Below, piece by piece: positions 33,500-46,848 of a stretch of 64,000 nucleotides of DNA; the first letter of the stretch is position 1, and each line of letters begins with the position of its first letter. The position numbers and the translations under genes are program-made. Location: the sequence record MN850595.1. One strand, given 5' to 3'. Below the pieces are notes generated by a model. That model was not told where the DNA came from and searched no databases. It saw only the letters and a list, made by a program, of their open reading frames with translations. The stretch comes from Escherichia phage naswa.

Positions 33500-33658
33500 A
33501 TGAAAGGTAATGCTACTCGCCTGGGAAATGTAGTGATTAATGATACGGAAGCTATCGCCCTGGTTGAAAAGGTTATGGCGGGAGCGTTGGAACATAAAGA
33601 AGAGTACGAAAAAATGGTGGTTAACCTGGCGGGGGGCGGCAGGTGGATTCTATCATAA
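33500..33658 (+). CDS. hypothetical small protein
   Basis: 52 codons from ATG 33500 behind AGAAGAGG; partly overlaps CCTGGCGGGG repeat, so coding status uncertain. Confidence 0.3.
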   Translation: MKGNATRLGNVVINDTEAIALVEKVMAGALEHKEEYEKMVVNLAGGGRWILS

Positions 33659-33677
33659 AAATAATTTAAAATAGTCG

Positions 33678-33705
33678 TTGACAACAAGGTTAATCATGGT
33701 ATTAT
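33678..33705 (+). promoter_or_regulatory. sigma70-like promoter (TTGACA-N16-TATTAT)
   Basis: Hexamers read directly. Confidence 0.5.
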
Positions 33706-33755
33706 TACCCTACAAGGTGAACAACACCGCACTAACCAGTAAAGAGGATAAATTT

Positions 33756-33953
33756 ATGAACGCATACGGGATCAAAGTACGTCGCAACACTCGCCAGGTG
33801 GTCACCAATCAAGTGATTTGCCGGGTGGATGTAACCATCAACAACGGGCAAGGCCTTTATAAATTTCGTCGCGGTCATAGCTATACCCTGCAACAGCTTA
33901 ATCGTTGCGCCCTGACAAAAGGTCAGATCAACCACTGGTTTAATAAAAAATAA
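33756..33953 (+). CDS. hypothetical small protein
   Basis: Start moved to ATG 33756 behind AAAGAGGA. Confidence 0.4.
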   Translation: MNAYGIKVRRNTRQVVTNQVICRVDVTINNGQGLYKFRRGHSYTLQQLNRCALTKGQINHWFNKK

Positions 33954-33956
33954 GTA

Positions 33957-33985
33957 TTGACATACAGTCCGACACCAAATACACT
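33957..33985 (+). promoter_or_regulatory. sigma70-like promoter (TTGACA-N17-TACACT)
   Basis: Hexamers read directly. Confidence 0.5.
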
Positions 33986-34017
33986 AAAAGCACAAAAGAC
34001 ACTAAGAGGATAAAATC

Positions 34018-34416
34018 ATGAAAACCACTACCTTTAATTTTGATAATGCAGACTTTTCTTTTTCTGATGTCAAGAACTGCCGCCGTGATCGTGGATTTTA
34101 CAAGGCTTATAATCTGGTGGGCCTGGACGATGACAATAATTTGCACGAAGTAGCTGAGATCCGGTATTATGCCGCCGCCAGCGGGAACACTCACTACTGC
34201 GTGTTTTGGATTCACGACAACAAGAACAATAAGTACGGTTATACTGGCGGCAAGGCGAGCGGTCACGGTTACGATAAAGCTAACGCAGCACTTGAGAGCG
34301 CATTAAATGCTATGGGGATCACTGCCGACGGCTGGATCTACGAAGAAGAGTTTTTGTCGGCACTTGCTGACCACCTGGGCTATAAAAAACACATTGTAAC
34401 ATGCGCCCACGAATAA
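34018..34416 (+). CDS. hypothetical protein
   Basis: Track ORF 132 aa; AAGAGGA SD. Confidence 0.5.
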   Translation: MKTTTFNFDNADFSFSDVKNCRRDRGFYKAYNLVGLDDDNNLHEVAEIRYYAAASGNTHYCVFWIHDNKNNKYGYTGGKASGHGYDKANAALESALNAMGITADGWIYEEEFLSALADHLGYKKHIVTCAHE

Positions 34417-34422
34417 AAATCA

Positions 34423-34450
34423 TTGACACGCTGCAAAATTTAAGTAAACT
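34423..34450 (+). promoter_or_regulatory. sigma70-like promoter (TTGACA-N16-TAAACT) with 5' leader hairpin
   Basis: Followed by GGCGGGAA-TGTT-TCCCGCC stem-loop at 34461-34479 and CA-rich leader. Confidence 0.5.
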
Positions 34451-34498
34451 AGACACAAAAGGCGGGAATGTTTCCCGCCAGCACAAAGGAAAAAGATC

Positions 34499-34894
34499 AT
34501 GAATAAGAACGTACGCCGCATCATGAACGAACTGGCAAACGATGAAAAAATTATTGATATGCATTTGGTCAACATTTGCCGCCGTTGTGTAACATATAAC
34601 AACCGCGCCGCAAAAGCGCGTGAGATGAACGCAAAAGGCACCTTAAAGCCCTTTCAGGTGGTTGTAAAATCTATAACTAGCGCAGCAGGCCAGGCGCAGG
34701 ACCACAACAACGAGAGCGCTAATATTGATCCGTCTTACGTAATGAAACGGATCCGGACTTGCAAGAATAAAGAGCAGGTATATAACGTCATAGATTGGCT
34801 GGACTCCCTGGGCGATGTGGTTTACAATAGGTTTTCTGCAGCTATCGAGATCCAGCTTGACAGATTGGACGGGAAAGTACTAAAAACTTATTGA
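34499..34894 (+). CDS. hypothetical protein
   Basis: Track ORF 131 aa. Confidence 0.5.
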   Translation: MNKNVRRIMNELANDEKIIDMHLVNICRRCVTYNNRAAKAREMNAKGTLKPFQVVVKSITSAAGQAQDHNNESANIDPSYVMKRIRTCKNKEQVYNVIDWLDSLGDVVYNRFSAAIEIQLDRLDGKVLKTY

Positions 34895-34896
34895 GT

Positions 34897-34942
34897 TTAT
34901 TTTTAGATGGCCTTGACACCAGGGCCATCAATAAAGTAAACT
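34897..34942 (+). promoter_or_regulatory. repeated promoter/operator element (copy 1): palindrome GATGGCC-TTGACA-CCAGGGCCATC with TAAACT -10
   Basis: 45-bp element 'TTATTTTTAGATGGCCTTGACACCAGGGCCATCAATAAAGTAAA' also at 35518 and 39251. Confidence 0.55.
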
Positions 34943-34974
34943 AACCACAGTTGAGCGGAAAAGGGGGCTTAAAG

Positions 34975-35094
34975 ATGAGCACTACACGCCAGCACACAAA
35001 GGTAACCATCATCGTTTGCATCATTGGGTACATCCTGGCGCAAATGTTGATGGGTAGCGCCAACGGTGTCGCAAAATTTTTCTTAAACTTTTAA
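34975..35094 (+). CDS. small hydrophobic peptide (39 aa)
   Basis: ATG behind AAAGGGGG; hydrophobic core 'IIVCIIGYILAQMLMG'; below track length cutoff. Confidence 0.3.
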   Translation: MSTTRQHTKVTIIVCIIGYILAQMLMGSANGVAKFFLNF

Positions 35095-35122
35095 TTGACA
35101 AGCTAACTTAAATCGATATAAT
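35095..35122 (+). promoter_or_regulatory. sigma70-like promoter (TTGACA-N16-TATAAT)
   Basis: Consensus hexamers read directly. Confidence 0.55.
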
Positions 35123-35173
35123 AAGCACATAAACGGGAAAACTTCCCAGAACACACAAAAGGAGAAAAACACC

Positions 35174-35515
35174 ATGACTACTATGACCGCCTCAGAAAAA
35201 GCTATGCAGATCGCTGAACTGAAAAAACAGATCGCAGACCTTGAGAATAAGATCGATAACTTTGAAATCGACGAGGACAAGTACGACGAAAACTATGATG
35301 AATGGTTAGACGAGATCTACGGCGAAATTATGATCGGAAACATTTCTTTTCTTCCGTCGCGTATCCTCAAGGAGCTAGATCCTATCGCTTACCGCTGCGG
35401 ATTTAGCGACTACATCGACAGCCTGGATATTGAGGACGATGAAGAATACCAGGAATTACAGACAGAGTTAGAAGAAGCAAAAGAAGAGCTTGCGGAGCTG
35501 GAAGAAAACGAGTAA
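35174..35515 (+). CDS. highly acidic small protein (DNA-mimic candidate)
   Basis: 113 aa; long Asp/Glu runs and coiled-coil-like heptads. Confidence 0.5.
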   Translation: MTTMTASEKAMQIAELKKQIADLENKIDNFEIDEDKYDENYDEWLDEIYGEIMIGNISFLPSRILKELDPIAYRCGFSDYIDSLDIEDDEEYQELQTELEEAKEELAELEENE

Positions 35516-35517
35516 GC

Positions 35518-35562
35518 TTATTTTTAGATGGCCTTGACACCAGGGCCATCAATAAAGTAAAC
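35518..35562 (+). promoter_or_regulatory. repeated promoter/operator element (copy 2)
   Basis: Identical 45-bp element to 34897. Confidence 0.55.
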
Positions 35563-35604
35563 TTTATACTGTTAACACTGAACTAATGCATAGGAGTTAA
35601 AACC

Positions 35605-35850
35605 ATGGCAGCACTAATCACCAAATATTATGCCCCTACCAACACCAAAAGCGCCCGTATCATGGTAAAAGGCTTCGGACGTAAAAAGGTGTACACCTGG
35701 GATTATGCCTTAGACACGGAAGACAACTACACCAACGCAATGACCGATTTTATTAATGAACTAAATAAGCAGATCTTGACAAGTTATAAAGTGACCGATA
35801 TTGCTTATATAGGTGAAGGCGGGATCTGTTTTGTAGGCATTGTGAAATAG
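35605..35850 (+). CDS. hypothetical protein
   Basis: Track ORF 81 aa; 'ATAGGAGTTAAAACCATGGC' start context identical to gene at 40217. Confidence 0.5.
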   Translation: MAALITKYYAPTNTKSARIMVKGFGRKKVYTWDYALDTEDNYTNAMTDFINELNKQILTSYKVTDIAYIGEGGICFVGIVK

Positions 35851-35924
35851 TTATTTTTTCGGTGGTCCTGGTTGCAGGGCCATCTATAAAGATAATTTAT
35901 TAACACCATGAAAGGAGAAAGTAC

Positions 35925-36278
35925 ATGATCAGCGGGGCAAGTTTTATTATTGGCGCTATTGCTACGGCTTTAATTGTAAATAAGATCCAGGATAAAAAGG
36001 AAAGAGGAAGTACCGCCCTTGCAGAATATCCATTTTGGGCATTCAACGATAACGAAGATTATATTATAAAGTATAAAAATAAAGAAGGTGACCAAGTAAC
36101 ACCGCGACCGATCCCGGCTTACAAAATGCAGGAAACACTATACCGCCTGGAGGCGGGAGGCGCAAAAATTGTAGACTTTTGGGGATACGACCACACAGAT
36201 CAGGAAGTTATAAAGCGCCGTATCCGGGCTATTCAGGCCAATATTGAAGTTAGCAAGGGGGGAATATATGAAAATTAA
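35925..36278 (+). CDS. hypothetical protein (N-terminal hydrophobic segment)
   Basis: Track ORF 117 aa. Confidence 0.5.
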   Translation: MISGASFIIGAIATALIVNKIQDKKERGSTALAEYPFWAFNDNEDYIIKYKNKEGDQVTPRPIPAYKMQETLYRLEAGGAKIVDFWGYDHTDQEVIKRRIRAIQANIEVSKGGIYEN

Positions 36279-36465
36279 TTTCGAGAAAATTGTAAAGCGC
36301 CCTCATGATTCCGAAGAGCTGCCAGAACGCCGCCAGCGTAACAATAAACTGAATAAGCCAAAAAGGTTTGGGAAGATCTGGCGTAATCATTATGATCGTA
36401 AATTGCCCGGCCTACTTTTGGAACGTGAACGACAGGCAGAACGATACCGCCATAAAGACAAATAA
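36268..36465 (+). CDS. hypothetical basic protein
   Basis: Start moved to ATG 36268 behind AAGGGGGG; Arg/Lys-rich. Confidence 0.4.
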   Translation: MKINFEKIVKRPHDSEELPERRQRNNKLNKPKRFGKIWRNHYDRKLPGLLLERERQAERYRHKDK

Positions 36466-36471
36466 CAACCA

Positions 36472-36498
36472 ACGCCCCGCCATTGTGCGGGGCTTTTT
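36472..36498 (+). terminator. rho-independent terminator
   Basis: GCCCCGC-CATTGT-GCGGGGC hairpin then TTTTTATTT. Confidence 0.6.
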
Positions 36499-36646
36499 AT
36501 TTCTATCCTACGAATAGCGCCCCTGGTTGGCCCCACAAACGCCACAAAAGCCCCTACCTATGCAATCCCCTTTCTTGACCTGAAAACAACGTCTAGGGCC
36601 GTTTTATGGCGTTAAAAATATTATTGACAGTGATTTTATTCAAAGC

Positions 36647-36675
36647 TTGACACCTTGGAATAGTCCGGATATACT
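36647..36675 (+). promoter_or_regulatory. sigma70-like promoter (TTGACA-N17-TATACT)
   Basis: Hexamers read directly; track ORF 36647 starts inside the -35 and is rejected. Confidence 0.5.
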
Positions 36676-36706
36676 AACCACATCAAAGCAAGAAGGAGTA
36701 AACGCC

Positions 36707-36967
36707 ATGCGTAAATTAAAAAATTTTGATAAAGTAGATGTTGTCCTGAATAATTTTTACTACTGCAATAATAAAGCCGTTTGGTGGCGTGATAGTTCCA
36801 CCGATAAAGTTAAAGCGCGCTTTCTCCAGGGGCACTGGCAAGGCCGCCCAGTGATTAAAATCTTAGGGCAATTGGTAGCGTTTAAAAATTGCCACCGTGT
36901 TGACGACGTTGAAGATATTTTGAACATTTTACGCCACAATAATTTAAAAAATAGTGTTGACAAGTAA
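36707..36967 (+). CDS. hypothetical protein
   Basis: Start moved to ATG 36707 behind AGAAGGAG. Confidence 0.45.
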   Translation: MRKLKNFDKVDVVLNNFYYCNNKAVWWRDSSTDKVKARFLQGHWQGRPVIKILGQLVAFKNCHRVDDVEDILNILRHNNLKNSVDK

Positions 36968-36984
36968 GCCTCAATAAGTATACT
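36957..36984 (+). promoter_or_regulatory. sigma70-like promoter (TTGACA-N16-TATACT) with leader hairpin
   Basis: Followed by GGCGGGAA-AACT-TCCCGCC at ~36996-37013. Confidence 0.5.
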
Positions 36985-37041
36985 TAAACACACAGGCGGG
37001 AAAACTTCCCGCCACTAACAAAGAAAATAGGAGAAAATATC

Positions 37042-37665
37042 ATGACCACCGTTAACATTACTACAGGTTACAATTTATCTTTCGACGTGCTGACCGACGA
37101 ACAAAAAGAAAAAGCCGTTGAAATGGTCCGCGAAAGAGAAGAACACAGCGGGGATAATTTTTTTGCAGAAAGTGTAATTGAATACTATAAAGAATATGTT
37201 TTTCCAGAGTATGGCCTTGAAGATACCGAAGTACATTGGTCAGGCTTTTGGTGCCAGGGTGACGGCGCGTCAATCAGTGCGGAAAACGTGGATTTAGAAA
37301 AATTCTTGCGTAAAGTAAAGGCCCTGACCAAGTTCCGATCAATTCGTCACTTGTTCGGCACAATGCACGATGGCGAGCTATCCGCAAGTGTTGAGCGTGA
37401 TCCATATAGCCGCTATAGTCACGAAAACACTGTAAGCGGGTACATCGATACTACATGGCTAGACCTGACCGCCAAACAAGAAAATAAAGTGGAAGATCTG
37501 GAAGAGCTGATCACCGAGACGGTACGGGAGCTATCCCGCAAGGTTTACGTAGACCTGGAGGAGGCCTATCTTGAGCAATTTACCGCCGAAAACTTGATCG
37601 GCCTTATCGAGGCAAATGATTGGCGGTTTGATGTGGATGAGCATGGCGAGATGAGTTTTTCATAA
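37042..37665 (+). CDS. hypothetical protein
   Basis: Track ORF 207 aa; TAGGAGAA SD. Confidence 0.55.
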   Translation: MTTVNITTGYNLSFDVLTDEQKEKAVEMVREREEHSGDNFFAESVIEYYKEYVFPEYGLEDTEVHWSGFWCQGDGASISAENVDLEKFLRKVKALTKFRSIRHLFGTMHDGELSASVERDPYSRYSHENTVSGYIDTTWLDLTAKQENKVEDLEELITETVRELSRKVYVDLEEAYLEQFTAENLIGLIEANDWRFDVDEHGEMSFS

Positions 37666-37672
37666 ATAAAGT

Positions 37673-37700
37673 GTTGCAATAATCTAAAAACCTGCTATAT
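37673..37700 (+). promoter_or_regulatory. sigma70-like promoter (TTGCAA-N16-TATATT) with leader hairpin
   Basis: Followed by GGGGCAAG-ACG-TTTGCCCC stem-loop. Confidence 0.45.
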
Positions 37701-37754
37701 TAAAACTCAAGGGGCAAGACGTTTGCCCCCACACAAAACAAAGAGGAAAACATC

Positions 37755-38135
37755 ATGAAAAACACTACTAAAGCTATTGACACCGTCATGTTTAACCTGG
37801 TTACATTCCGTGAAGATATGAAAGATCTTCCTCGTGAAACAGTGTGCGACCATATCGAAAACTATCGCAAACTAATCAAAGAGTTGCCTTTAAAACGTGA
37901 TCAATATGCGGCTAACGCCATGCTTAATGCCATGATCAAAAAGATGATCCAGTGTGATTTAACCCTGGCCTATGATTATGCAGGCGGTCGTTTTGCAGTA
38001 TACAATCAGCCCGTGCCCGGTATGAGCACCACCGAAGAATTGCACGCGCTCAATCTAAAACAAGACGTGTGGGATAGTATGCCTCGCGTGGTGGTATGGG
38101 TAGAAAGCGGAAAGATTTACGGCGATAATTTTTAA
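37755..38135 (+). CDS. hypothetical protein
   Basis: Track ORF 126 aa; AAGAGGAAAA SD. Confidence 0.5.
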   Translation: MKNTTKAIDTVMFNLVTFREDMKDLPRETVCDHIENYRKLIKELPLKRDQYAANAMLNAMIKKMIQCDLTLAYDYAGGRFAVYNQPVPGMSTTEELHALNLKQDVWDSMPRVVVWVESGKIYGDNF

Positions 38136-38199
38136 TCAGGTAGCAGGCGGCATATTTGCCGCCTTATTGTTAATCAGAACTGTAAAAGAGGTACATAGA

Positions 38200-38571
38200 A
38201 TGGAATTTATTATTTTGGCTGTATTTGTTGCCTTGTTCAACGCCTGGATCGCTGGCAAGATGGGTAGATCCGCCTTTTTATGGTTTATTATATCTATTTT
38301 CCTGGGGGTGGTTGCAACTATTGTACTTGTTATCCTTGCAATTGTTGACAAGGGGAATAATAGAAAGGGTAAAGTATTTTCAGACCTGTACGACGCTCAA
38401 ACGTTTGTCAACGCCTATTATAGTGATCTTCCAGTCTCCCTACGCTGCAGCCTGGCACAACAAGTTTTCGATGAGGCTAAAACCAGAGATCAAGCCCATG
38501 AGATATGTTTAACTGAGGCGGATCGCCTATTTGAGAGGAATAGAAAATATGTGGGCCAACCGTTTAAATAA
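38200..38571 (+). CDS. membrane protein (two predicted TM helices)
   Basis: Start moved to ATG 38200 behind AAAGAGG; 'FIILAVFVALF' and 'WFIISIFLGVVATIVLVILAIV'. Confidence 0.5.
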   Translation: MEFIILAVFVALFNAWIAGKMGRSAFLWFIISIFLGVVATIVLVILAIVDKGNNRKGKVFSDLYDAQTFVNAYYSDLPVSLRCSLAQQVFDEAKTRDQAHEICLTEADRLFERNRKYVGQPFK

Positions 38572-38770
38572 TGCCACATTAATTAATCCCTTTAGTGAAG
38601 ATTTGAAGCCAGCCGCCTGGCGTGATGGATTCAATAACGAACGCTTTATTTTCAAGCCTGATCTTGAGGAATTTTATAACAATGGATCGAACAACGACAG
38701 AGATAATTTTTCTTGTGGTGTGCGTAGTGATGGTACTCCTGGGGGCCATTGTAAACCACGTCACTACTAA
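38549..38770 (+). CDS. hypothetical protein
   Basis: Start moved to ATG 38549 behind GAGAGGAA. Confidence 0.35.
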   Translation: MWANRLNNATLINPFSEDLKPAAWRDGFNNERFIFKPDLEEFYNNGSNNDRDNFSCGVRSDGTPGGHCKPRHY

Positions 38771-38913
38771 CAGGGGGAAAGGGGGAGACGATGACACCCA
38801 AGGATAAGCCCCGCACCGATAAGGCGCGCCGTGTTATGGTATGGCTTGAGATCATCGCCCTTGAAATATTGTTAGGGGTAGGGATGTACTTTATCGCTGT
38901 AAGTAACTAAGAA

Positions 38914-38945
38914 CGGCCCCCCGATCATGGGGGCCTATCTTTTAA
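38914..38945 (+). terminator. rho-independent terminator
   Basis: GGCCCCCC-GATCAT-GGGGGCC hairpin then TATCTTTT. Confidence 0.5.
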
Positions 38946-38951
38946 AAAAAT

Positions 38952-38991
38952 TCTTCCGGGGTGTTGCAATCCGGTCCGGAATGTGGATAAT
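38952..38991 (+). promoter_or_regulatory. sigma70-like promoter (TTGCAA-N16-GATAAT) with -35 bracketed by TTCCGG/CCGGAA
   Basis: Hexamers and palindrome read directly. Confidence 0.4.
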
Positions 38992-39047
38992 AACAATCAA
39001 CGGGGAGCTAATCCCCACCACCACAAAAACCAGAAAGGAGAAACAAA

Positions 39048-39248
39048 ATGAGCAACAATATCCGCGTTATTAACTTCAAAAAAGAAGAAAAAATTGCCGT
39101 GCTGATTGACGGTCAAGAAATCTTCAAGGGCGACTATGAAGATCATCAAACGGCGATTAGTATCACTCGCGTGATTGGTTACCATAATTTTTACCCCCAA
39201 GGCGCTGAGGCAGCGGTTAAACGAATCAAAGAGATTGTAGGCCTGTAA
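39048..39248 (+). CDS. hypothetical protein
   Basis: Track ORF 66 aa; AAAGGAGAAA SD. Confidence 0.5.
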   Translation: MSNNIRVINFKKEEKIAVLIDGQEIFKGDYEDHQTAISITRVIGYHNFYPQGAEAAVKRIKEIVGL

Positions 39249-39250
39249 AA

Positions 39251-39295
39251 TTTATTTTTAGATGGCCTTGACTCCAGGGCCATCAATAAAGTAAA
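39251..39295 (+). promoter_or_regulatory. repeated promoter/operator element (copy 3, TTGACT variant)
   Basis: 'TTTATTTTTAGATGGCCTTGACTCCAGGGCCATCAATAAAGTAAA'. Confidence 0.5.
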
Positions 39296-39333
39296 TTTAA
39301 ACCCTGTTAAAAATACCACGCAGTTAACAAGGA

Positions 39334-39642
39334 GTGATAGACATGTTTATCCAGGCTAATAATCTTTATTTCTTTGATGGTCAGATCGTAGACGGCGTGG
39401 AGGTGGAAATCACCGGGTGCCCTGGCGGTCAGGTTATGACTTTTCGGAATAATGCCTTTGATGATTCTCATATCGTTATGAGAATGGAAGTTAGTAAGCT
39501 GGATGACAAGAAAACACTTATCGACTATTCCGTCAAAGATCATCCAGACTACCACATGATCTATGGTGATTTGTGCATTGTTGACCGTGACAAGGTTGGC
39601 GGCATTGTGATCGCTATTGTGAACGATGTTTTCTCAAACTAA
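39334..39642 (+). CDS. hypothetical protein
   Basis: Track ORF 102 aa; AAGGAG SD. Confidence 0.5.
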   Translation: MIDMFIQANNLYFFDGQIVDGVEVEITGCPGGQVMTFRNNAFDDSHIVMRMEVSKLDDKKTLIDYSVKDHPDYHMIYGDLCIVDRDKVGGIVIAIVNDVFSN

Positions 39643-39659
39643 TTTCAGCAGGTAATTTT

Positions 39660-40010
39660 ATGAAAGTAAAACTATATTACCTTAATGAGCTTAACCCCCT
39701 TGCCCAGGTCCGCGCCCTGGCTAATACCTTGATTTGTGAGAAATCTGTATATTGTGTTGAGCTTAACGCCATGCGTGAACGTCTCAAAGGTGGTTACTTT
39801 GACATCCATGCTGCAATCAACGGCCTGAATATAGAATTTATCCGCTTACGTAACAGCCGCCAGAATCTGGCAAGAATGGAACAAGATCCGGCCCACCTTC
39901 GTAAGCTGGTTATTGAAAATCATCTGATGTTTAATGCCGATGGTGATTATTACCATTTTCACCGTAAACGCTGGTACCGTAGCGGCAATATAGGAAAGAA
40001 TGCAAAATAA
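39660..40010 (+). CDS. hypothetical protein
   Basis: Track ORF 116 aa. Confidence 0.5.
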   Translation: MKVKLYYLNELNPLAQVRALANTLICEKSVYCVELNAMRERLKGGYFDIHAAINGLNIEFIRLRNSRQNLARMEQDPAHLRKLVIENHLMFNADGDYYHFHRKRWYRSGNIGKNAK

Positions 40011-40044
40011 GGCCCCTGGCAGGGCCTGCAGCGATATAATCACA

Positions 40045-40078
40045 TAAAGGCTATGCGGTTGCATAGCCTTTATTATTT
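40045..40078 (+). terminator. rho-independent terminator
   Basis: AAAGGCTATGC-GGTT-GCATAGCCTTT hairpin then ATTATTTT. Confidence 0.6.
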
Positions 40079-40216
40079 TGGCGTTACAGCGGCCCCCAAG
40101 GCGCTTAAAAAATTTTTAAAGAAGTACTTGCATCAAGTCCTACAATATGGATAATAAAGGGTGTCGGGGGGCGGTGAGGCCTCCAATCATTAACCGGATA
40201 GATAGGAGTTAAAACC

Positions 40217-40501
40217 ATGGCTATTGTTACCGTTGGCGATGTAGTGGAAATGGAAGCAAAATACTTAAAAGCGGGTATGCATATCCTACGCAACGATCTT
40301 GAACTAGTCCTGACAATGGTTGACTATAACCCAGGGCAAGATTATCCAAGCATCGACTACTTTTTTGAGTATGTTGATGAAGAGTTGAAAGAGGATGAGG
40401 CCTATTGCGGTGAGTTCTGCAATTTCTTTTGTCCTGATGAGGTTGTAAAGGTTATCTATCAACCTGGCGTACCTTTCCCGCTGCACGCTATCAATAAATA
40501 A
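40217..40501 (+). CDS. hypothetical protein
   Basis: Track ORF 94 aa; TAGGAG SD. Confidence 0.5.
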   Translation: MAIVTVGDVVEMEAKYLKAGMHILRNDLELVLTMVDYNPGQDYPSIDYFFEYVDEELKEDEAYCGEFCNFFCPDEVVKVIYQPGVPFPLHAINK

Positions 40502-40564
40502 ACCTGGTGGGGCCGAAAAGGCCCCCTCCTGAAACTATGAAAAAATAAAGAGAGGTAAATCATC

Positions 40565-40798
40565 ATGATGGAACAAATTAAACGCGCTGAGTCTATTAAT
40601 GGCAATGTGATCTATTTTGTCAGCAAAAACGAAAAAGGCGTACCATATGCGGCGGTAATAGTACAACCTGACGGCGATTATTGGTTTACTGTATACGGAT
40701 CTTATTCTTTCGGGCGTCCGGTTCATGATAGAATTTTGAAAGTAGCAAATCCGACCGGGAAAAATATCACAGCAGAAAAATTTTTTGAAAATAGTTGA
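40565..40798 (+). CDS. hypothetical protein
   Basis: Track ORF 77 aa; AGAGAGG SD. Confidence 0.5.
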   Translation: MMEQIKRAESINGNVIYFVSKNEKGVPYAAVIVQPDGDYWFTVYGSYSFGRPVHDRILKVANPTGKNITAEKFFENS

Positions 40799-40822
40799 CA
40801 TGACCATATAAGACTGTAATAT
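40795..40822 (+). promoter_or_regulatory. sigma70-like promoter (TTGACA-N16-TAATAT) with leader hairpin
   Basis: Followed by GGGGGGCAAC-AA-GCCCCACC and CCACAAAGAGGA leader. Confidence 0.5.
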
Positions 40823-40874
40823 ATAAATCAAAGGGGGGCAACAAGCCCCACCAACCACAAAGAGGATAAAAATC

Positions 40875-41054
40875 ATGGCTATTATTGCAAAGACTGAGAT
40901 CGTAGGCTTAGATTCTATTCTCCTCGCATATGAGGAAGCTATAGAAATGTATGTGGTTTCCTATGGTGAGTATATTCGTGAATATAAATCTATTGATCTG
41001 GCTTTTGAATGTTATATTCGCCAGGTAAATAAAGCATATGATGATTATCGTTAA
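40875..41054 (+). CDS. hypothetical small protein (59 aa)
   Basis: ATG 40875 behind AAGAGGA; below track cutoff; translated by eye. Confidence 0.4.
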   Translation: MAIIAKTEIVGLDSILLAYEEAIEMYVVSYGEYIREYKSIDLAFECYIRQVNKAYDDYR

Positions 41055-41060
41055 AATAGT

Positions 41061-41088
41061 TTGACAACAATTACAAATCGGGTAGAAT
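41061..41088 (+). promoter_or_regulatory. sigma70-like promoter (TTGACA-N16-TAGAAT)
   Basis: Followed by 'TGTATTTCGTAGGGCGG' leader (also at 41581) and GGCGGCA-ATGA-TGCCGC hairpin. Confidence 0.5.
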
Positions 41089-41139
41089 GTATTTCGTAGG
41101 GCGGCAATGATGCCGCTCACAACTAAAAGAGAGATCATC

Positions 41140-41334
41140 ATGGCGCTTAAAAAACTAACAAGCAATACTCGTTGGGATGAAATCGACGGGGAAGTTTACA
41201 TTTTTGCCCGTAAACCAGGGGATCAAAAATGGTCAAAGGCTTTTACTTGCCATCCTGCAACAATAGATCTGATAAAAAGTCAAGGACTACGTGAAGCAGT
41301 AGCAAGAAGTTTACTGATCCCTTGTAAAAATTAG
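41140..41334 (+). CDS. hypothetical small protein
   Basis: Start moved to ATG 41140 behind AAAGAGAG. Confidence 0.45.
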   Translation: MALKKLTSNTRWDEIDGEVYIFARKPGDQKWSKAFTCHPATIDLIKSQGLREAVARSLLIPCKN

Positions 41335-41345
41335 TTTGACAACAG

Positions 41346-41373
41346 TCAACAATCTGGTAAAGTGTACTACATA
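41346..41373 (+). promoter_or_regulatory. sigma70-like promoter (TTGACA-N16-TAAAGT)
   Basis: Followed by GCGGGAA-TACT-TCCCGC hairpin and 'CCATTAATGAGGGTA' leader. Confidence 0.5.
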
Positions 41374-41411
41374 GCGCGGGAATACTTCCCGCCATTAATG
41401 AGGGTAATTTA

Positions 41412-41549
41412 ATGAAAACTTTCAACGCAACAGCCTCGACAATTGGTTATATTATTACAGTACAAGCCGTGGATCTGGTAGCAGCAGCAAACAAGATTAA
41501 AAAGATGATTCCGCCAGGTAGTGAATTTTCCGTTTGGGAAGTAAAATAA
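41412..41549 (+). CDS. hypothetical small protein (45 aa)
   Basis: ATG 41412 behind GAGGGTAA; below track cutoff. Confidence 0.35.
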   Translation: MKTFNATASTIGYIITVQAVDLVAAANKIKKMIPPGSEFSVWEVK

Positions 41550-41552
41550 ATC

Positions 41553-41580
41553 TTGACAATAGTTTATTACTTGATAGACT
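41553..41580 (+). promoter_or_regulatory. sigma70-like promoter (TTGACA-N16-TAGACT)
   Basis: Followed by 'TGTATTTCGTAGGGCGG', hairpin and 'CCATTAATGAGGGTA' leader. Confidence 0.5.
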
Positions 41581-41632
41581 GTATTTCGTAGGGCGGGGCA
41601 ATAAGGCAACGCCCATTAATGAGGGTAGAATC

Positions 41633-41737
41633 ATGTTAGAGAAAATTTTCACGGTTGTAGTAGTTGGCCTGGCATTATCGGTTGGAGTGGTTGCAACTAT
41701 GGCTAACATGATCCTATCTTCCCACGGTATCGGTTAA
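41633..41737 (+). CDS. small hydrophobic peptide (34 aa)
   Basis: ATG 41633 behind GAGGGTAG; 'FTVVVVGLALSVGVVATMANMIL' single TM-like segment. Confidence 0.35.
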   Translation: MLEKIFTVVVVGLALSVGVVATMANMILSSHGIG

Positions 41738-41738
41738 G

Positions 41739-41963
41739 GTGAATCAAATGATCACGAATAAGACAGGTAAAACAGAATTTTTACGCGGCTTGCAAATAGG
41801 TAAGCCTGAGATCTGGCATTGCACTAAAACACCACGTGACGAAATGAAAGACTTCACCGCCACGCTGCAACGGGTAAAGATATCCATCACGCAGAAAAAG
41901 GCCTTGATAGTGGTGGAAGGTGAGATCCCTCAAACCGTTGTTATAGTTGAGCGTACAGCATAG
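41739..41963 (+). CDS. hypothetical protein
   Basis: Track ORF 74 aa. Confidence 0.4.
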   Translation: MNQMITNKTGKTEFLRGLQIGKPEIWHCTKTPRDEMKDFTATLQRVKISITQKKALIVVEGEIPQTVVIVERTA

Positions 41964-42054
41964 TTTAATTTATAGCGATACCTGAAAATTAACCAATAAA
42001 TCATAAACAGGCGGTTACCGCCGCCTTAAACGTAGCAGAAAGAGGCTAGACACA

Positions 42055-42339
42055 ATGAAAAAGATGATCGCAGTAGTTGCCCTGGTTGTTGGACTTAATG
42101 CGCCTGTAATGGCTAAAGAGCTGGCAAAAGAGGTTAATCTAACGGATATCCATGCCGTCAATAAAATCGGGGTTACTTATCGCTTATGCCTTGCCGCTAA
42201 AACTTTTAATGACGGCACAACAGAGTACTACGGATTCGAGGGTATCCGGTGCGGTGAGCTTGCTCGCGACCTTAAGGAAGATCCAGACCTGGAAGATCTG
42301 CCCATCACCGTAAACGGTAAAGCTTACGTAAACCGTTAA
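42055..42339 (+). CDS. secreted small protein
   Basis: 94 aa; signal-peptide-like 'MKKMIAVVALVVGLNAPVMA'; leader hairpin GGCGG-TTA-CCGCC upstream. Confidence 0.5.
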   Translation: MKKMIAVVALVVGLNAPVMAKELAKEVNLTDIHAVNKIGVTYRLCLAAKTFNDGTTEYYGFEGIRCGELARDLKEDPDLEDLPITVNGKAYVNR

Positions 42340-42488
42340 CCGTGAAAAAGATAATCATTACCTTGGGGATTGTGGCGGGATCGCTGGCGCTCTTTCCCCT
42401 TATGGTTAGATATGTGCTGATCAGTATTGTCCTGGTGGTCAGTGATCTACTAGAAACGGTTGGCACCTTGTTTTAAAGAGCGATAAAA

Positions 42489-42680
42489 ATGAATGTTGAA
42501 CAAGTTAGAAAGGTATTGGCGGTACTGCGTTATCATAATCATAGAAAGGTCATAGACGATCCTGATTATGTTGATTCAAGTCTGGAAGAGGATACACTAC
42601 AAGCCATAAGTAACATGCAAGAATTGCTAAAGCGCATGACAGAGAAAAACCGACCGGACTACATAGGCGAAAAAATATAA
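42489..42680 (+). CDS. hypothetical protein
   Basis: Track ORF 63 aa. Confidence 0.45.
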   Translation: MNVEQVRKVLAVLRYHNHRKVIDDPDYVDSSLEEDTLQAISNMQELLKRMTEKNRPDYIGEKI

Positions 42681-42695
42681 TCCTTATTAACTAGA

Positions 42696-42726
42696 AAACA
42701 GGGCTTGCAATGGTCCTGTTTTTTGT
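42696..42726 (+). terminator. rho-independent terminator
   Basis: AACAGG-GCTTGCAATGGT-CCTGTT hairpin then TTTTGTT. Confidence 0.45.
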
Positions 42727-42737
42727 TATACTTATTA

Positions 42738-42787
42738 CACGGCAGGCACCTGGCGACGGGGGGAGACAATCACCGGGCCTGCCTGTC
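42738..42787. repeat. GC-rich imperfect-palindrome element (inverted copy)
   Basis: Reverse complement carries 'GGCAGGCCCGGTGATTGTCTCCCCCCGTC..CAGGTGCCTGCC', matching the two copies at 33168-33349. Confidence 0.5.
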
Positions 42788-42808
42788 ATATAAGAACTAT
42801 AAAAACCG

Positions 42809-42837
42809 TTGACATCTGCCAGGTGGTGGGGTAACAT
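42809..42837 (+). promoter_or_regulatory. sigma70-like promoter (TTGACA-N17-TAACAT) with leader hairpin
   Basis: Followed by GGGGCAAAAGTGCCC-like hairpin and ACACAACAACCAGAAGAGAGG leader. Confidence 0.45.
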
Positions 42838-42891
42838 TTATCTTGAAGGGGCAAAAGTGCCCACACAACAACCAGAAGAGAGGAAAACATT

Positions 42892-43164
42892 ATGTCAAGC
42901 TGGATTAATCAAGAAGTCGAATCACGTTTTAATGCTATTTGGGATCTCATCGAAAAAGAGGACGGAACATCAAGCCCTTATCTCAATAATCTTGAATTCC
43001 ATTTCGTGGAAGCGATGAACGCAGAACATGATCACGAAGGTGGTGCGGATGAGTTCGCTAAAGGGTATGGCTTCAACAATGCCAACGAAATGATCGAGGC
43101 GGTTGTACTCCAGGCTGAGGAAGATTATCAATTAAAAACGCTTGAATTCTGCCGCCGTAAGTAA
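42892..43164 (+). CDS. hypothetical protein
   Basis: Track ORF 90 aa. Confidence 0.5.
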   Translation: MSSWINQEVESRFNAIWDLIEKEDGTSSPYLNNLEFHFVEAMNAEHDHEGGADEFAKGYGFNNANEMIEAVVLQAEEDYQLKTLEFCRRK

Positions 43165-43224
43165 TAAGATAATGACACGGGCCAAAAGGCCCACTAATCA
43201 GAACCACACAAAGAGAGAAAGAAA

Positions 43225-43443
43225 ATGACAACCCGTAAAATTAAAGTTGTTTGCATTGAATCGACTGGGGGCGCTTTTGTAGTTGGTCAGGAATATAATG
43301 CGGTTTTAATGGGTACGGATTGGAAGGTTAAAGGCCTTAATGGTTACGAGTACGGCACTACTTGCGGCTTGCGTGGTCGAATCGGATACGTGAGTTTAGA
43401 CAATAAAGAAAAATTTGTTTTCGACACCGTTGTGAGTAAATAG
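43225..43443 (+). CDS. hypothetical protein
   Basis: Track ORF 72 aa; leader hairpin GGGCC-AAAA-GGCCC upstream. Confidence 0.5.
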   Translation: MTTRKIKVVCIESTGGAFVVGQEYNAVLMGTDWKVKGLNGYEYGTTCGLRGRIGYVSLDNKEKFVFDTVVSK

Positions 43444-43521
43444 CATGAATTGCTAAAGACTGATCTGCGAACTGCTGTATTATCAACTAATCAAAACGAA
43501 CCGCATAAAGAGGAAAACATC

Positions 43522-43785
43522 ATGAAACGTCTGGATCAGCTTAAATTAGTTCAGTACATGGCCTACAGAATTCTTGAAGTCCAAAAAGGTAGCAAAAAAG
43601 AGGTTTGCGAGAAAGCTTATAAGATCTTTACTCGCAAAAAAGATGACTGGATGCTACGCCAGACCAAAAAATCCGATATCCTGGGGTACCTGGAAGAAGA
43701 GATCCGGCTTGAAGAACAAGAAGAGATCCGCCGCAGTGAGGCAGATTATCAGGCAGCTTGGGAAAACTGGATGAGCAACAAATAA
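43522..43785 (+). CDS. hypothetical protein
   Basis: Start moved to ATG 43522 behind AAGAGGAAAACATC leader. Confidence 0.45.
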   Translation: MKRLDQLKLVQYMAYRILEVQKGSKKEVCEKAYKIFTRKKDDWMLRQTKKSDILGYLEEEIRLEEQEEIRRSEADYQAAWENWMSNK

Positions 43786-43842
43786 TACAACAAGTTACGG
43801 TCAGGGGGGTAATAAAGCCCCTTGATCACATAAAAATTATGC

Positions 43843-43880
43843 TATCCCTGGTTGACAGGGATCGGCAGTTTTGCTATATT
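43843..43880 (+). promoter_or_regulatory. sigma70-like promoter (TTGACA-N17-TATATT) with -35 inside palindrome ATCCCTGG-TTGACA-GGGAT
   Basis: Hexamers and palindrome read directly. Confidence 0.5.
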
Positions 43881-43929
43881 CTTTTTTGAAGGGGAGTTGT
43901 AAGAAAATTAACTAAGAGGTAAAAACACC

Positions 43930-44349
43930 ATGAACATTAAATCTAATAATCCGGCATATAGCTTTGATAACGCTTTTTGTCACGGTCCGGCGGCGAAAGG
44001 ATTCGAAATCGATGGTAAACTAATTATTGTCAATGTTGACGGGGAAGAGGTTGCAGTATATCCGGTGGCAGACGTTAAAAGCCGTCTACAATGCCGCATG
44101 GATGTTACCGCCTATCAGCTTGATCCGGTCCGCATAGTTGCCCTGGTCCTGGAAGAAGAAATTAAAGCCATGCACCATAGCAACAGATTTATTGGTGACG
44201 CGCAGGATAATATGAAAGTATGCCGCCATAAAGTTAATGAAGTGCTTAAAGAGTACGGCTATAAAGATCTTATGATCAAACGCGAGGAAAAATTCCGCTA
44301 CCGTAACGACCTGGCAAATCGGATTTTTGAAATATACGAATCATTATAA
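43930..44349 (+). CDS. hypothetical protein
   Basis: Track ORF 139 aa; last gene of plus-strand arm. Confidence 0.5.
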   Translation: MNIKSNNPAYSFDNAFCHGPAAKGFEIDGKLIIVNVDGEEVAVYPVADVKSRLQCRMDVTAYQLDPVRIVALVLEEEIKAMHHSNRFIGDAQDNMKVCRHKVNEVLKEYGYKDLMIKREEKFRYRNDLANRIFEIYESL

Positions 44350-44367
44350 TTTTTTAACTGAATTATC

Positions 44368-44393
44368 AAGGGGCTTAGGCCCCTTTCTTTTTG
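44368..44393 (+). terminator. rho-independent terminator
   Basis: AAGGGGC-TTAG-GCCCCTT hairpin then TCTTTTTG. Confidence 0.6.
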
Positions 44394-44399
44394 TCTGCT

Positions 44400-46840
44400 C
44401 TTCCCCCCCTACCATAAACGGCCCTACCTGGCAAGTGGAATAATTGACGAGCCATCAATCCCACACACTGTACAAATATACATGGAAAATAACTATTGCA
44501 TAATTTTTCATTGTGTGGTAGCAAGGCCATTTTTACCCGTTTTACCTTCCAAAATTGCACGTAATGCCGCTATTGCACAAATTTTAACCTGATGCACATC
44601 TCCAATATCTTGTCAACAACTAAAAATCTTTATAAGTCATGCACTTACATAACCACAAAAGCGTGTTCTACGTGAAAAATCGAGTATAACTATAGCCGCC
44701 AGATCTCAGAATTTACGTACGCTCACCAGTCTATAGCCTGCTAAGTATTTATTCCAACCATAGAATAACGGAATAGTCAATACCTGCATAAAATAATTAT
44801 TCGTGTAAACTGCATAACATAAATCGGCTAGGATGTCAACATTTTTCGTAAACAGCTCGAAATTATAACGGTGAGTTATAATAAACAGAGAAATCTTTAG
44901 TCGTCTAATGTTTACTGTACATTACTATACTGACTGGAATCATTAGATGACTAAGAGAAAGATAAGAAATCATTAACAATGCAATTGTTTTATTCGTAAC
45001 AATAAGGCAACTATGCAAACGAATGGCATGGCGCGACGGAGTCGCGACATAATATAAAAGCAGTAACCATCACCCCCGTGATAGTTTGTCTGCAAACTAT
45101 TAATCAGATCATAGTTGCCTTGTATTTAGTTAATCATGACATAACAAGCAGGGCAACTATAGATCTGCTAATAGTTGCCCTGCTTTTATATTATGTCATG
45201 CTAATTATAATCAGTGCGATTATTGTCATGTATAATTATTGTCATGCAAACGAATGGCATGGCTGATTATCGGTGTGTAAACAGTCAATCATGTAAATGG
45301 TTAGCATGTGAACAATCAGGAATGTAAACAATCCAGTGTGTAAACTAATAGGTGTGTAAAAGTGTCATGTTGTGTCAGTTAGGTCACATTATGTCAGACA
45401 AGTTTTTCTCCTCTTTGTCAAGTGCTGCATGAAAAATTTACAAGCTTGTATGGTAGCATTTTTGCGGCCCTGTTTACATTCAGGAGTGTATGTATAATCC
45501 TTGGTGTGTGGGCGTTTAGACGTCTAGACGGTTGGAAGTATGCAGGTCAATATCTAATCTATTGGCTGCTAACTATATCCCACACAAATGATAAGAAATA
45601 TAATTGTTATATGCGTAAACTGTAACTCATGTTATCAATCCCTGTATGTATCGCCAGTGGTGCGCATAATGGGTATTATGTTAAATTGCCCGTAATGATA
45701 ACTATTCTCACAATGATAGGTATTCTCATTCACCCCCACAAGATAGGTTGCAAATGTTGTGCCACTGTGTGAACGGCCTAGCCTATTAATTTGCCTCACT
45801 GCCTTGATATTTGAGAATTGTTATAAGAATGAGAAGTATTCCCATTTCGTCCGCCTGGCAGCACTCCAGTCGCTACCGGCTCCTGACAGGGCAGCTCTCC
45901 TGTAGGTCAGGTCAAAATCGTGGTAGAATTGGGCCTATTCAGATATTTCTGGCTGACTCTTCAGGTCTGTGTGAGAAAAGCCAACCTTTCCGGCGGCGGG
46001 GAGGGGTCAATTAAAAAATTTACGTGGTGTATGAAGCGCTCTTCAGGTAAGGCAGGTATTATGTGATGAAACCCTCTTCAGGCAATGATATTTGTGGGTG
46101 TGATATTTGCTGGAAAGCCAGATATGACGGGACTCCCGGCGGGGCAGGGGTAGTACAGACAGGGAAAATATGGGGGATGTAGTTGGGGAAATTGATCAGG
46201 CAGGTAGAGTATGGAATATGTTACAAGTATGTTAAATATGGAGGTTGAATATCTGCAGGATTTGTGTGTAAAATCAAAGACTTAAGTGGTGTTGTGGTAT
46301 TTTCTATAAATAATTCAAGTTTAATAGGTAATATTTGTCTCTATCCACTTTGTGTGGTAAACAGATTCAGATGAAATTGGTTTACAAGTGTATACATAAT
46401 ATACAAATTAAAGATACAAGAAACCCCCCTCCCCCTTCGGCTACCATTCACCTTTTCCTCTGACTGGTACTTAAACACTTATTCAGACTCTTCAGGTTAT
46501 CACCCATATATCATATGGCAGTGACTGGTGTCCTCCGGCCCCTCTTTCGTCACCCGTCCGCTTCGCCATGCTAATGCCATAGCCAATGGTTCGGTTGTTC
46601 ACCCTGTTCACTCAGGTGTATCTCCATACCCCTTCAAACCGAAGAGAACAGAAAACCCGAATTACTCGGTAAAAGAAAAGAGAAGAACTTAATTTTATCA
46701 GGATAGGCAAGAATGTCAAGGCATGACTGCTCACTAAACAAGCAAACAGTCATGTGTGGTAGGTAAGTGATTGTGGTGGTAGGAAATTTAGTTGAAAGAT
46801 GTGTTATAGGTGCGCTTCCAGCACTTTAGCCGGGCAGCTA
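44400..46840. other. ~2.4-kb non-coding convergence region with several repeat families (candidate origin / packaging / terminus region)
   Basis: No long co-directional ORF; 20-bp direct repeat at 45013 and 45244; ATAGTT(G/T) palindromes 45082-45182; six TGTAAAC-like iterons 45276-45361; CTCTTCAGG x5 from 45957. Confidence 0.5.
45276..45361. repeat. six iteron-like repeats (TGTAAAC core, 14-17 bp period)
   Basis: Cores at 45276, 45293, 45307, 45323, 45339, 45355. Confidence 0.5.
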
Positions 46841-46848
46841 ATTGTGTG

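Follow-up and report, generated by a model that had tools for sequence, protein, structure and literature searches.

Repeated promoter-hairpin-leader modules between the small genes of an rV5-like coliphage, and their resemblance to the promoter-early stem-loop cassettes of T4-like phages

Genes, promoters and hairpins of the arm

The DNA examined here is a stretch of 64,000 nucleotides (nt) from Escherichia phage naswa (sequence record MN850595.1), which we call the window and which belongs to an rV5-like myovirus of the genus Vequintavirus. Our subject is an arm of small genes at 33650-44400, in which a unit of about 85 base pairs (bp) is repeated: a sigma70 promoter, a linker, a GC hairpin that begins with its G-rich half, an A/C-rich leader and a Shine-Dalgarno (SD) sequence, followed by a small open reading frame (ORF). 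The arm is 99.7% identical to that of Escherichia phage EmilHeitz (BASEL Bas49), and 254 phage records match it. About 23 records, most of them without annotation, carry the name 'Campylobacter phage' and match the arm at about 93% identity; wrong labels or contamination with rV5-like coliphages probably explain them. The genes of the arm are all annotated as hypothetical except for one putative holin. Those downstream of the modules encode 34-207 amino acids (aa), and the ten largest ORFs of the arm gave no Pfam match above threshold and only PHROGs of unknown function. The expectation that the arm encodes several membrane peptides, a secreted protein and an acidic protein was borne out: six ORFs encode membrane peptides (starts at 34975, 35925, 38200, 38791, 41633 and 42342), the ORF at 42055 begins like a signal peptide, and those at 35174 (net -27) and 37042 (net -25) are acidic.

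Scored with a cut-off of at least 10/12 against 300 dinucleotide shuffles, the + strand of the arm holds 15 near-consensus sigma70 sites (2.06 +/- 1.5 in shuffles, maximum 9), and the - strand holds none. A broader scan of 30-48 kb found 68 promoter-like sites against 41.9 +/- 6.0 in shuffles, with almost every strong one falling on the arm's + strand. The first-pass annotation of this DNA had read at least 15 sigma70-type promoters here; every site that it listed exists, although two coordinates shift slightly (41346 becomes 41336, and 37673 becomes 37674), and promoters at 35534, 38964, 39268 and 40128 join its examples. The spacer of module promoters is mostly 16 nt. Upstream of the promoters lies an A/T-rich tract that holds the stop codon of the preceding gene, as in CGTTAAAATAGTTTGACA, which encloses the TAA stop of ORF 40875-41054.

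The hairpins are tied to these promoters by a nearly constant distance. Among all GC hairpins listed for the window, 11 on the + strand begin 9-12 nt past a -10 hexamer, ten of them in the arm and one at 16277. Under a strict definition the combination of promoter and hairpin at this spacing occurs eight times in the arm and 0.06 times per shuffle (300 shuffles), so that the cassette architecture first proposed is real and far beyond chance. The offset from -10 to hairpin (9-12 nt, mode 10) is kept across divergent linkers and at least seven different stem sequences, and the distance from hairpin to ATG varies from 18 to 32 nt; the hairpin is therefore placed relative to the promoter and not to the ribosome-binding site (RBS). 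Stems are 5-9 bp long, and the G-rich arm is the 5′ arm in 47/47 unique hairpins. Clear hairpins follow the promoters at 34423, 36957, 37674, 38964, 40128, 40795, 41061, 41336, 41553 and 42809, and weak ones follow those at 33678 (4 bp) and 35095 (5 bp); the earlier statement that most promoters are followed by a hairpin was correct about the hairpins and overstated their extent, which is 10-12 of 18 arm promoters. The loop of the GGCGGGAA hairpins is N3, not N4 as first described.

The linker usually ends in C-A-T/Y-A (CACATA, CACGTA, ACATC). Since the conserved C-A-T/Y, at positions 7-9 past the -10, matches the pyrimidine(-1)/A(+1) context in which transcription usually starts, we infer a transcription start site (TSS) at its A, about position 8, which would put the hairpin at about +4, behind some three unpaired 5′ nt. 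We folded the predicted 5′ untranslated regions of the 12 hairpin-bearing arm modules and of one module outside the arm, with three hairpin-less leaders as controls. Nine of the 13 hairpin-bearing leaders have z scores of -2.4 or below (down to -5.6), and in every case the hairpin lay 4-7 nt into the segment, with nothing else paired; the three controls showed no significant structure. Between hairpin and SD the leader contains A, C, G and T at 58, 22, 9 and 10%, compared with 32.5/19.5/22.8/25.2 for the arm background, so the "CA-rich" leader of the first description is dominated by A and C as claimed, and is more precisely rich in A, with C, and poor in G and T.

The modules, all on the + strand, are given here with the position of the -35 hexamer in brackets and the spacer length between the hexamers. 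The two with weak hairpins are 33663-33758 (A/T tract, TTGACA(33678)-16-TATTAT, 10-nt linker, hairpin 33716-33728 with z -1.2, ATG 33756) and 35080-35176 (TTGACA(35095)-16-TATAAT, 12-nt linker, hairpin GGGAAaacTTCCC at 35135-35147 with z -1.8, leader beginning agaacacacaaaagg, ATG 35174). Module 34408-34501 has TTGACA(34423)-16-TAAACT, the linker agacacaaaa, the hairpin GGCGGGAAtgtTTCCCGCC at 34461-34479, whose leader folds at -14.6 kcal/mol (z -3.95), the leader agcacaaaggaaaaagatc and ATG 34499. The lowest z score belongs to module 36942-37044: TTGACA(36957)-16-TATACT, linker taaacacaca, hairpin GGCGGGAAaacTTCCCGCC at 36995-37013 (z -5.6) and ATG 37042. Two modules share the -35 hexamer TTGCAA, namely 37659-37757 (TTGCAA(37674)-16-TATATT, 9-nt linker, hairpin GGGGCAAgacgtTTGCCCC at 37711-37729 with z -3.2, leader cacacaaaacaaagagg, ATG 37755) and 38949-39050 (TTGCAA(38964)-16-GATAAT, linker aacaatcaac, hairpin GGGGAgctaaTCCCC at 39002-39016 with z -2.5, leader beginning accaccacaaaaacc, ATG 39048). 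Module 40113-40219 combines TTGCAT(40128)-16-GATAAT, with an extended TG, a linker of 10-11 nt and a hairpin at 40167-40184 (-13 kcal/mol, z -0.4), ahead of ATG 40217.

Four modules lie close together in the right part of the arm. Module 40780-40877 has TTGACA(40795)-16-TAATAT, linker ataaatcaaa, hairpin GGGGGGCaacaaGCCCCACC at 40833-40852 (z -3.3), leader aaccacaaagagg and ATG 40875. In module 41046-41142 the tract AAAATAGT precedes TTGACA(41061)-16-TAGAAT, the linker is gtatttcgta, and the hairpin GGGCGGCAatgaTGCCGCTC at 41099-41118 (z -4.1) contains one G.U pair; ATG 41140 follows. Module 41321-41414 consists of TTGACA(41336)-16-TAAAGT, hairpin GCGGGAAtacTTCCCGC at 41376-41392, leader cattaatgagggta and ATG 41412, and module 41538-41635 of TTGACA(41553)-16-TAGACT, again the linker gtatttcgta, a hairpin at 41591-41614 (z -3.9), leader attaatgagggta and ATG 41633. 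Farther right, module 42794-42894 has TTGACA(42809)-17-TAACAT, an 11-nt linker, hairpin GGGCAaaagTGCCC at 42849-42862 (z -2.4), leader acacaacaaccagaagagagg and ATG 42892. A promoter-less half module at 43179-43227 retains the hairpin GGGCCaaaaGGCCC (43179-43192) and a CA-rich leader before ATG 43225. The module outside the arm, 16237-16323, precedes a 441-aa ORF: TTGACT-17-TAAGAT, 11-nt linker, hairpin GGGGAGGcactCCTCCCC at 16277-16294 (z -3.2), leader acaaaaactaagg, ATG 16321. GC hairpins at 38145-38164, 40509-40525 and 42009-42026 lie in intergenic leaders with no recognisable promoter; the first, which ends in a T-rich tail, could be a genuine terminator, and the other two, with hairpin and leader only, resemble half modules.

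Six arm promoters, at 33957, 34913, 35534, 36647, 39268 and 43852, have no hairpin at the +4 position. Those at 33957-34020 (TTGACA-17-TACACT, unstructured A/C-rich leader, ATG 34018) and 36647-36709 (TTGACA-17-TATACT, leader aaccacatcaaagcaagaaggag) are simply hairpin-less. The promoter at 43844-43932 (TTGACA(43852)-17-TATATT, ATG 43930) has a 7-bp stem-loop around its -35 (43844-43862). Three more carry D1, a 49-nt repeat found at 34894-34942, 35515-35563, 35849-35897 and 39249-39297; the third copy is degenerate and the other three are 94-98% identical. In the D1 promoter 34894-34977 a 10-bp stem-loop, GATGGCCTTG-acac-CAGGGCCATC (34906-34929), surrounds the -35 TTGACA(34913), followed by an 18-nt spacer and TAAACT; in 35515-35607 and 39249-39345 the stem-loops at 35527-35550 and 39261-39284 likewise surround the -35 hexamers at 35534 and 39268. 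D1 is a separate promoter class, which may be regulated or may correspond to the 'over -35' subclass described below.

Five terminators with U-tracts divide the arm into about five units. Canonical ones close unit 1 (36474-36501, GCCCCGCcattgtGCGGGGC + TTTTTATT), unit 2 (38915-38943, GGCCCCCcgatcatGGGGGCC + TATCTTTT) and unit 3 (40044-40081, a 13-bp stem + TATTTTGG); a terminator-like structure (42692-42733, a 14-bp stem + TTATACTT) closes unit 4, and a further canonical terminator (44368-44393, AAGGGGCttagGCCCCTT + TCTTTTTG) ends the arm, all on the + strand. The convergent - strand arm (46719-62039) has 17 strong sigma70-type promoters, none with a +4 hairpin, and short leaders (19-30 nt) that are likewise A/C-rich.

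Some features beside and within the arm deserve mention in their own right. The roughly 2.3 kb between the convergent + and - arms (44400-46700) has no annotated coding sequence in EmilHeitz and contains a direct repeat whose copies are spaced by 60 nt (45095/45155) as well as an inverted repeat of 18 nt that is perfect (45046/45180); the rV5 genome paper likewise draws a 'non-coding' box. At 32837-33022, just upstream of the arm, there are three direct repeats, each of about 65 nt, beneath two tiny annotated ORFs; the phage tuntematon has a repeat_region in its annotation at the corresponding position (L014 7126-7204). There are three copies of a conserved 17-nt core, GGGAGACAA(T/C)CACCGGG: one at 42759-42789 (+) and two, as reverse complement, at 33165-33193 and 33311-33329. 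Some 25-35 nt upstream of each copy stands a promoter-like -10, in TTGCAA-16-TATACT at 42705 for the + strand and in TTGACA-17-CATAAT at 33391 for the - strand. The + copy forms a long imperfect hairpin (-23.8 kcal/mol, z -2.8) and the other two are unremarkable. The element has no Rfam match and might represent either a small RNA or a protein site, placed near the left edge and in the right part of the arm.

Modules in related and unrelated phages

In the orthologous modules of five other Vequintaviruses the loops vary freely (TGT/ACA; AAC/CAA/GTT) and the stems persist. Some of the changes are compatible with wobble pairing on the sense strand: GGTGGG in the relative L003, TGCTC in L011 and a G.U pair in GGGCGGCA/TGCCGCTC. 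Other stems have been rebuilt altogether. The stem at 37711 goes from GGGGCAA/TTGCCCC to GGGGCGAG/CTTGCCCC, in a module remodelled in L012 and L013; the stem at 34461 goes from GGCGGGAA/TTCCCGCC to GGCGGTTGA/TCAGCCGCC in MiataMamis; and the hairpin at 40167 exists in three different versions among its orthologs. When 54 distinct hairpins were anchored on their loops, the five inner pairs were 93-100% paired, with several pair types at each position, against 6-89% when the 3′ arm was slid, a count that is biased toward each sequence's own fold. An asymmetry of G.U over A.C pairs (11 versus 5) adds weak support. MAFFT and RNAalifold returned no consensus structure for the 54 modules, because stems of unequal length fall out of register; we regard this as a failure of alignment and not as counter-evidence. 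Rfam 15 gave no match at gathering score in the window and only two chance-level matches in the arm (E 0.5-1).

The modules also mark the places where cassettes have been gained, lost and shuffled. BLAST of the arm against five relatives (a comparison of five to six genomes, with no module-free intergenic comparison) revealed indels of cassette size, and the four junctions resolved lie inside module repeats: 41052-41070, 41105|41400, 41406|41613 and 43220|43486. Mangalyan has an extra cassette at the repeated AAAATAG(T/C)TTG tract of the module with promoter 41061. In L003 and L011 a cassette is missing and the crossover falls within the loop of the hairpin at 41099-41118, leaving half a hairpin behind; this module is thus the junction of two indels. 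L010 and L012 lack the cassette 41406-41613, with the crossover in the shared leader ATTAATGAGGGTA, so that the modules of the 41336 and 41553 promoters are both indel junctions. The ORF at 43225-43443, which follows the half module, is absent from four relatives, the crossover lying in the AACCRCAYAAAGAG leaders. The order of the ORFs shared with tuntematon is scrambled. Neither this association of modules with gain, loss and shuffling nor the sharing of a homologous module across lineages appeared in the first-pass annotation.

That sharing reaches well beyond Vequintavirus. Tuntematon (Phapecoctavirus) has about 17 copies of the module and EmilieFrey (Justusliebigvirus) about 13; both belong to the Stephanstirmvirinae, where the module reads TTGACA-16-TAnnnT, a linker such as gtatcacata, a hairpin beginning with GGGCGGCA or GGCGGGAA, and a short purine-rich leader. 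A 73-nt module query matched 155 phage records in these groups. The 207-aa ORF of the arm, used as a query, led to a small-ORF region of the jumbo phage phAPEC6 (Asteriusvirus, 352 kb; MK817115 335265-345843), where at least seven ORFs in 7 kb are preceded by the module, here TTGCAA-16-TATAAT with gttttacatc, then a G-first hairpin (GAGAGCGGGAAcacTTCCCGC, for example) and a leader. Eight of 17 small ORFs there have homologs (57-96% aa identity) in the window, tuntematon or EmilieFrey, and module variants and ORFs are combined differently. The shared ORFs imply recent exchange of early cassettes between unrelated phage families. Searches farther afield returned little: the 207-aa protein found two close relatives only, the rest of its matches being unrelated high-GC contigs without such promoters, and an IMG/VR scan for TTGACA-N16/17-TAnnnT-N9-11-GGCGGGAA gave 105 matches, of which about 12 (on 8 contigs of 97-153 kb) have the closing arm of the hairpin. 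The remaining matches lack that arm and are due to chance.

Role of the stem-loop

We are inclined, with moderate confidence, to see in the arm a hyperplastic early region built from homologous cassettes similar to the promoter-early stem-loop (PeSL) cassettes of T4-like phages, in which a stem-loop at the 5′ end of the RNA protects or insulates the early messages and the module also provides homology for recombination. Host RNA polymerase would start at the A about 8 nt past the -10 and produce an early mRNA with some three unpaired nucleotides ahead of the hairpin. Such a 5′-terminal stem-loop should hinder decay that depends on access to the 5′ end (by RppH or the 5′ sensor of RNase E) and should keep upstream RNA from pairing with the RBS, while the open, U-poor leader would favor translation. 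Each cassette could then be expressed on its own at any place where it comes to lie. Since the modules recur within a phage and are common to several phages, they could serve as homology patches through which cassettes are deleted, inserted and re-assorted.

The fixed offset from the promoter, the lack of a U-tract, the strand-specific orientation with its tolerated wobbles, and the open U-poor leader together make a function as a 5′-terminal stem-loop the most likely one. The first-pass annotation had offered three roles for the hairpin, as a stabilizer of transcripts, a processing site or an enhancer of translation, and stabilization of the 5′ end appears to fit best, in view of the fixed offset from the promoter, the variable distance to the ATG, the lack of a U-tract and the stems kept through compensatory or wobble changes. 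Processing by RNase III is unlikely for stems of only 5-9 bp (a judgment from general knowledge), and a structure-based translational enhancer is not favored, as the RBS does not set the position of the hairpin.

Several observations weigh against a protective 5′ stem-loop. The hairpin is not universal; it is clear after 10/18 arm promoters, or 12/18 with the weak stems, and since 6-8 of the 18 and every promoter of the - strand arm lack it, it must be dispensable for early expression. Stem-loops placed around the -35 (D1, 43844) or the -10 (26053, outside the arm) would be absent from their own transcripts, and a single role common to all of the stem-loops would have to be exercised on read-through RNA or on DNA. 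Three unpaired nucleotides, approximately, are borderline for blocking RppH. The fixed spacing could come in part from common descent and homogenization of the modules. C.A or G.A mismatches occur in two orthologs, and sense RNA exceeds antisense in stability by only 22 cases to 10 (Wilcoxon p = 0.04), a weak difference among paralogs that are not independent. Finally, we found no transcript data or TSS maps for Vequintavirinae, Phapecoctavirus or phAPEC6 in the searchable literature, so the start sites and the presence of the hairpin in RNA are predictions.

The hairpins might be terminators or attenuators that shield each cassette from upstream transcription, as has been suggested for stem-loops in other phages; their position after a promoter would then be incidental. 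A terminator role was proposed for PeSL stem-loops, and a G-run/C-run stem-loop of RB49 lowered lacZ expression like a strong terminator (PMC2839356, PMC4122927); in the GenBank records of ASO2A and EdH4 the same hairpins, directly after promoters, bear the label of rho-independent terminators; and the stem-loops around -35 or -10 elsewhere in the window, unable to act on their own transcript, would find a use in this way. At the level of sequence, however, we reject the module hairpin as a canonical intrinsic terminator because no U-tract follows it. The next 8 nt contain 1.07 T on average (60 hairpins), with 0-1 T in 42/60, against 5-7 T at the five hairpin-and-U terminators that the arm itself employs. 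The opposite strand is moderately T-rich past the stem (mean 3.6/8), and no genes run that way. At +4 to +22 a terminator would also strike the cassette's own strong promoter, and a device meant for read-through has no need of an offset from the -10 fixed to within 1-2 nt. We think it unlikely, on balance, that termination or attenuation is what the module hairpins are for.

The palindromes might instead act on DNA only, either as recombination hot spots (by extrusion of a hairpin or cruciform, or as targets of a nuclease or recombinase) or as simple homology that spreads cassettes, the RNA hairpin being a by-product. This idea draws on the indel junctions within modules, including the one in a hairpin loop that leaves half a hairpin; on the re-assortment of module variants and ORFs; on the near identity of modules within tuntematon, EmilieFrey and phAPEC6, which suggests homogenization or spread; and on the published PeSL mini-circles with crossovers in the loop (PMC2839356, PMC4122927). 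Yet junctions fall also in the -35 tract and in the leader, where plain homology suffices without a hairpin. A DNA palindrome, moreover, requires neither a G-rich arm that always comes first nor tolerance of sense-strand G.U wobbles, and stems have been kept by remodelling even where the sequence, and hence the homology, was lost. A role confined to DNA is in our estimation distinctly unlikely.

Bolder still, and in our view improbable, is the notion that the module is actively recognized and not passive homology, with a structure-specific factor of phage or host acting on the G-first hairpin either in DNA, for excision and insertion of cassettes, or in RNA, for exemption from a global mRNA decay induced by the phage. 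The DNA version, if true, would mean that rV5-like, phi92-like, phAPEC8-like and jumbo Asteriusvirus coliphages share a pool of host-takeover genes in the manner of integrons. Bearing on the RNA version, rV5 encodes a homolog of Srd, a protein that stimulates RNase E in T4.

That the hairpin is a binding site for a phage or host factor on the nascent RNA or on DNA next to the promoter (nut/put-like antitermination, a translational repressor or an early shut-off operator) is very improbable, for although its position beside the promoter is fixed and only two stem types (GGGCGGCA and GGCGGGAA) recur in Stephanstirmvirinae, as would suit sequence-specific recognition, the loops are not conserved (UGU, AAC, AUGG, UAG, GACGU, CAACA and others), at least seven stem sequences occur in the window, there is no boxA-like partner or Rfam match, and cassettes that own promoters have no obvious need of antitermination.

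If a 5′ hairpin does stabilize early mRNAs in these phages, it would represent a widespread phage strategy that has so far gone undescribed. The modules offer a concrete mechanism for the plasticity of host-takeover regions and, in practice, a simple annotation marker for cassette boundaries; at present the hairpins are labelled 'terminator' directly after promoters.

Comparison with known systems

Early promoters of the same type have been reported in rV5 and in the Certrevirus phages CB7 and CR3. The rV5 genome paper predicts 33 sigma70-type promoters and 20 terminators and is silent on hairpins after promoters; the CB7 paper gives the consensus AAAA-N3-TGTTGAC-N19-TATAAT, clustered in a small-ORF region, which agrees with the AAAATAGTGTTGACA tract found here. 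In the rV5, CB7 and CR3 papers promoters and terminators are tabulated apart, and the coupled +4 hairpin, the leader and the modular shuffling are not described.

At the RNA level the nearest precedents are 5′-terminal stem-loops, which are established stabilizers of Escherichia coli mRNA (ompA, papA), enzymes of the RppH type preferring unpaired 5′ ends (review PMC3997798, citing Emory, Bouvet, Belasco). By analogy, the protection from 5′-end-dependent decay by RNase E and RppH that the ompA and papA leaders confer would be expected here as well. Phage T7 has a stabilizer of the same type in the 5′ stem-loop of its gene 10 leader, which pET vectors employ. All three leaders have in common with the modules a stable hairpin a few nucleotides from the 5′ end (a predicted end, in our case), an open leader and a strong SD. 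They are, on the other hand, single leaders that have been characterized by experiment, whereas the modules form a repeated family with stems of 5-9 bp, about three unpaired 5′ nucleotides and a predicted TSS. The geometry of strong promoter, +4 hairpin and open U-poor leader also resembles the insulated expression cassettes of synthetic biology.

The closest relatives in overall design are the PeSL cassettes of the T4-like phages RB49/phi1, PST/T4 and nt-1/KVP40 (Arbiol et al. 2010, PMC2839356; Comeau et al. 2014, PMC4122927). A PeSL combines an A/T tract that contains a stop codon with a sigma70 promoter of consensus type, a stem-loop of the form GGGG..CCCC and an SD/ATG; five positional subclasses are distinguished (upstream, over the -35, in the spacer, over the -10 and downstream of the -10), indel junctions lie in the elements, and crossovers occur in the loop (PMC2839356, PMC4122927). 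The modules described here share this plan, from the A/T tract with its stop codon through the sigma70 early promoter, the G-run/C-run stem-loop and the CA-rich leader to the SD/ATG. Modules and PeSLs alike recur in a hyperplastic region, between small ORFs whose function is unknown, and in both close relatives differ by indels or replacements with junctions inside the element, including the stem-loop's loop. Two further PeSL subclasses are represented in the window, 'over -35' by the stem-loops at 34906, 35527, 39261 and 43844 and 'over -10' by the one at 26053.

The differences are equally plain. In 20 kb of RB49 that we re-read, the stem-loop mostly fills the spacer between -35 and -10 (TTGACA GGGGATC..GATCCCC TATAAT), followed by a ACACACAT leader, and in one case only does it lie 10 nt past the -10, which is the dominant geometry here and the one in which the stem-loop is predicted to be transcribed, within the first 25 nt of the cassette's own RNA. 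The terminator role proposed for PeSLs is doubtful for modules that lack a U-tract. PeSLs belong to Straboviridae and the modules to Vequintavirinae, Stephanstirmvirinae and Asteriusvirus, and unlike PeSLs the modules are homologous across unrelated lineages. We found no paper in the searchable literature that links PeSLs with rV5-, phi92-, phAPEC8- or PBECO4-like phages. What is new, judged from sequence comparison, is thus the occurrence of PeSL-like cassettes outside the T4-like phages, with a hairpin predicted to be transcribed at +4 and a module common to four lineages. The idea of a mobile regulatory cassette would in this way reach past the T4-like phages to large virulent coliphages of at least four other lineages (one of them jumbo), which have homologous promoter-hairpin-leader modules in common, together with a pool of small early genes that re-assort.

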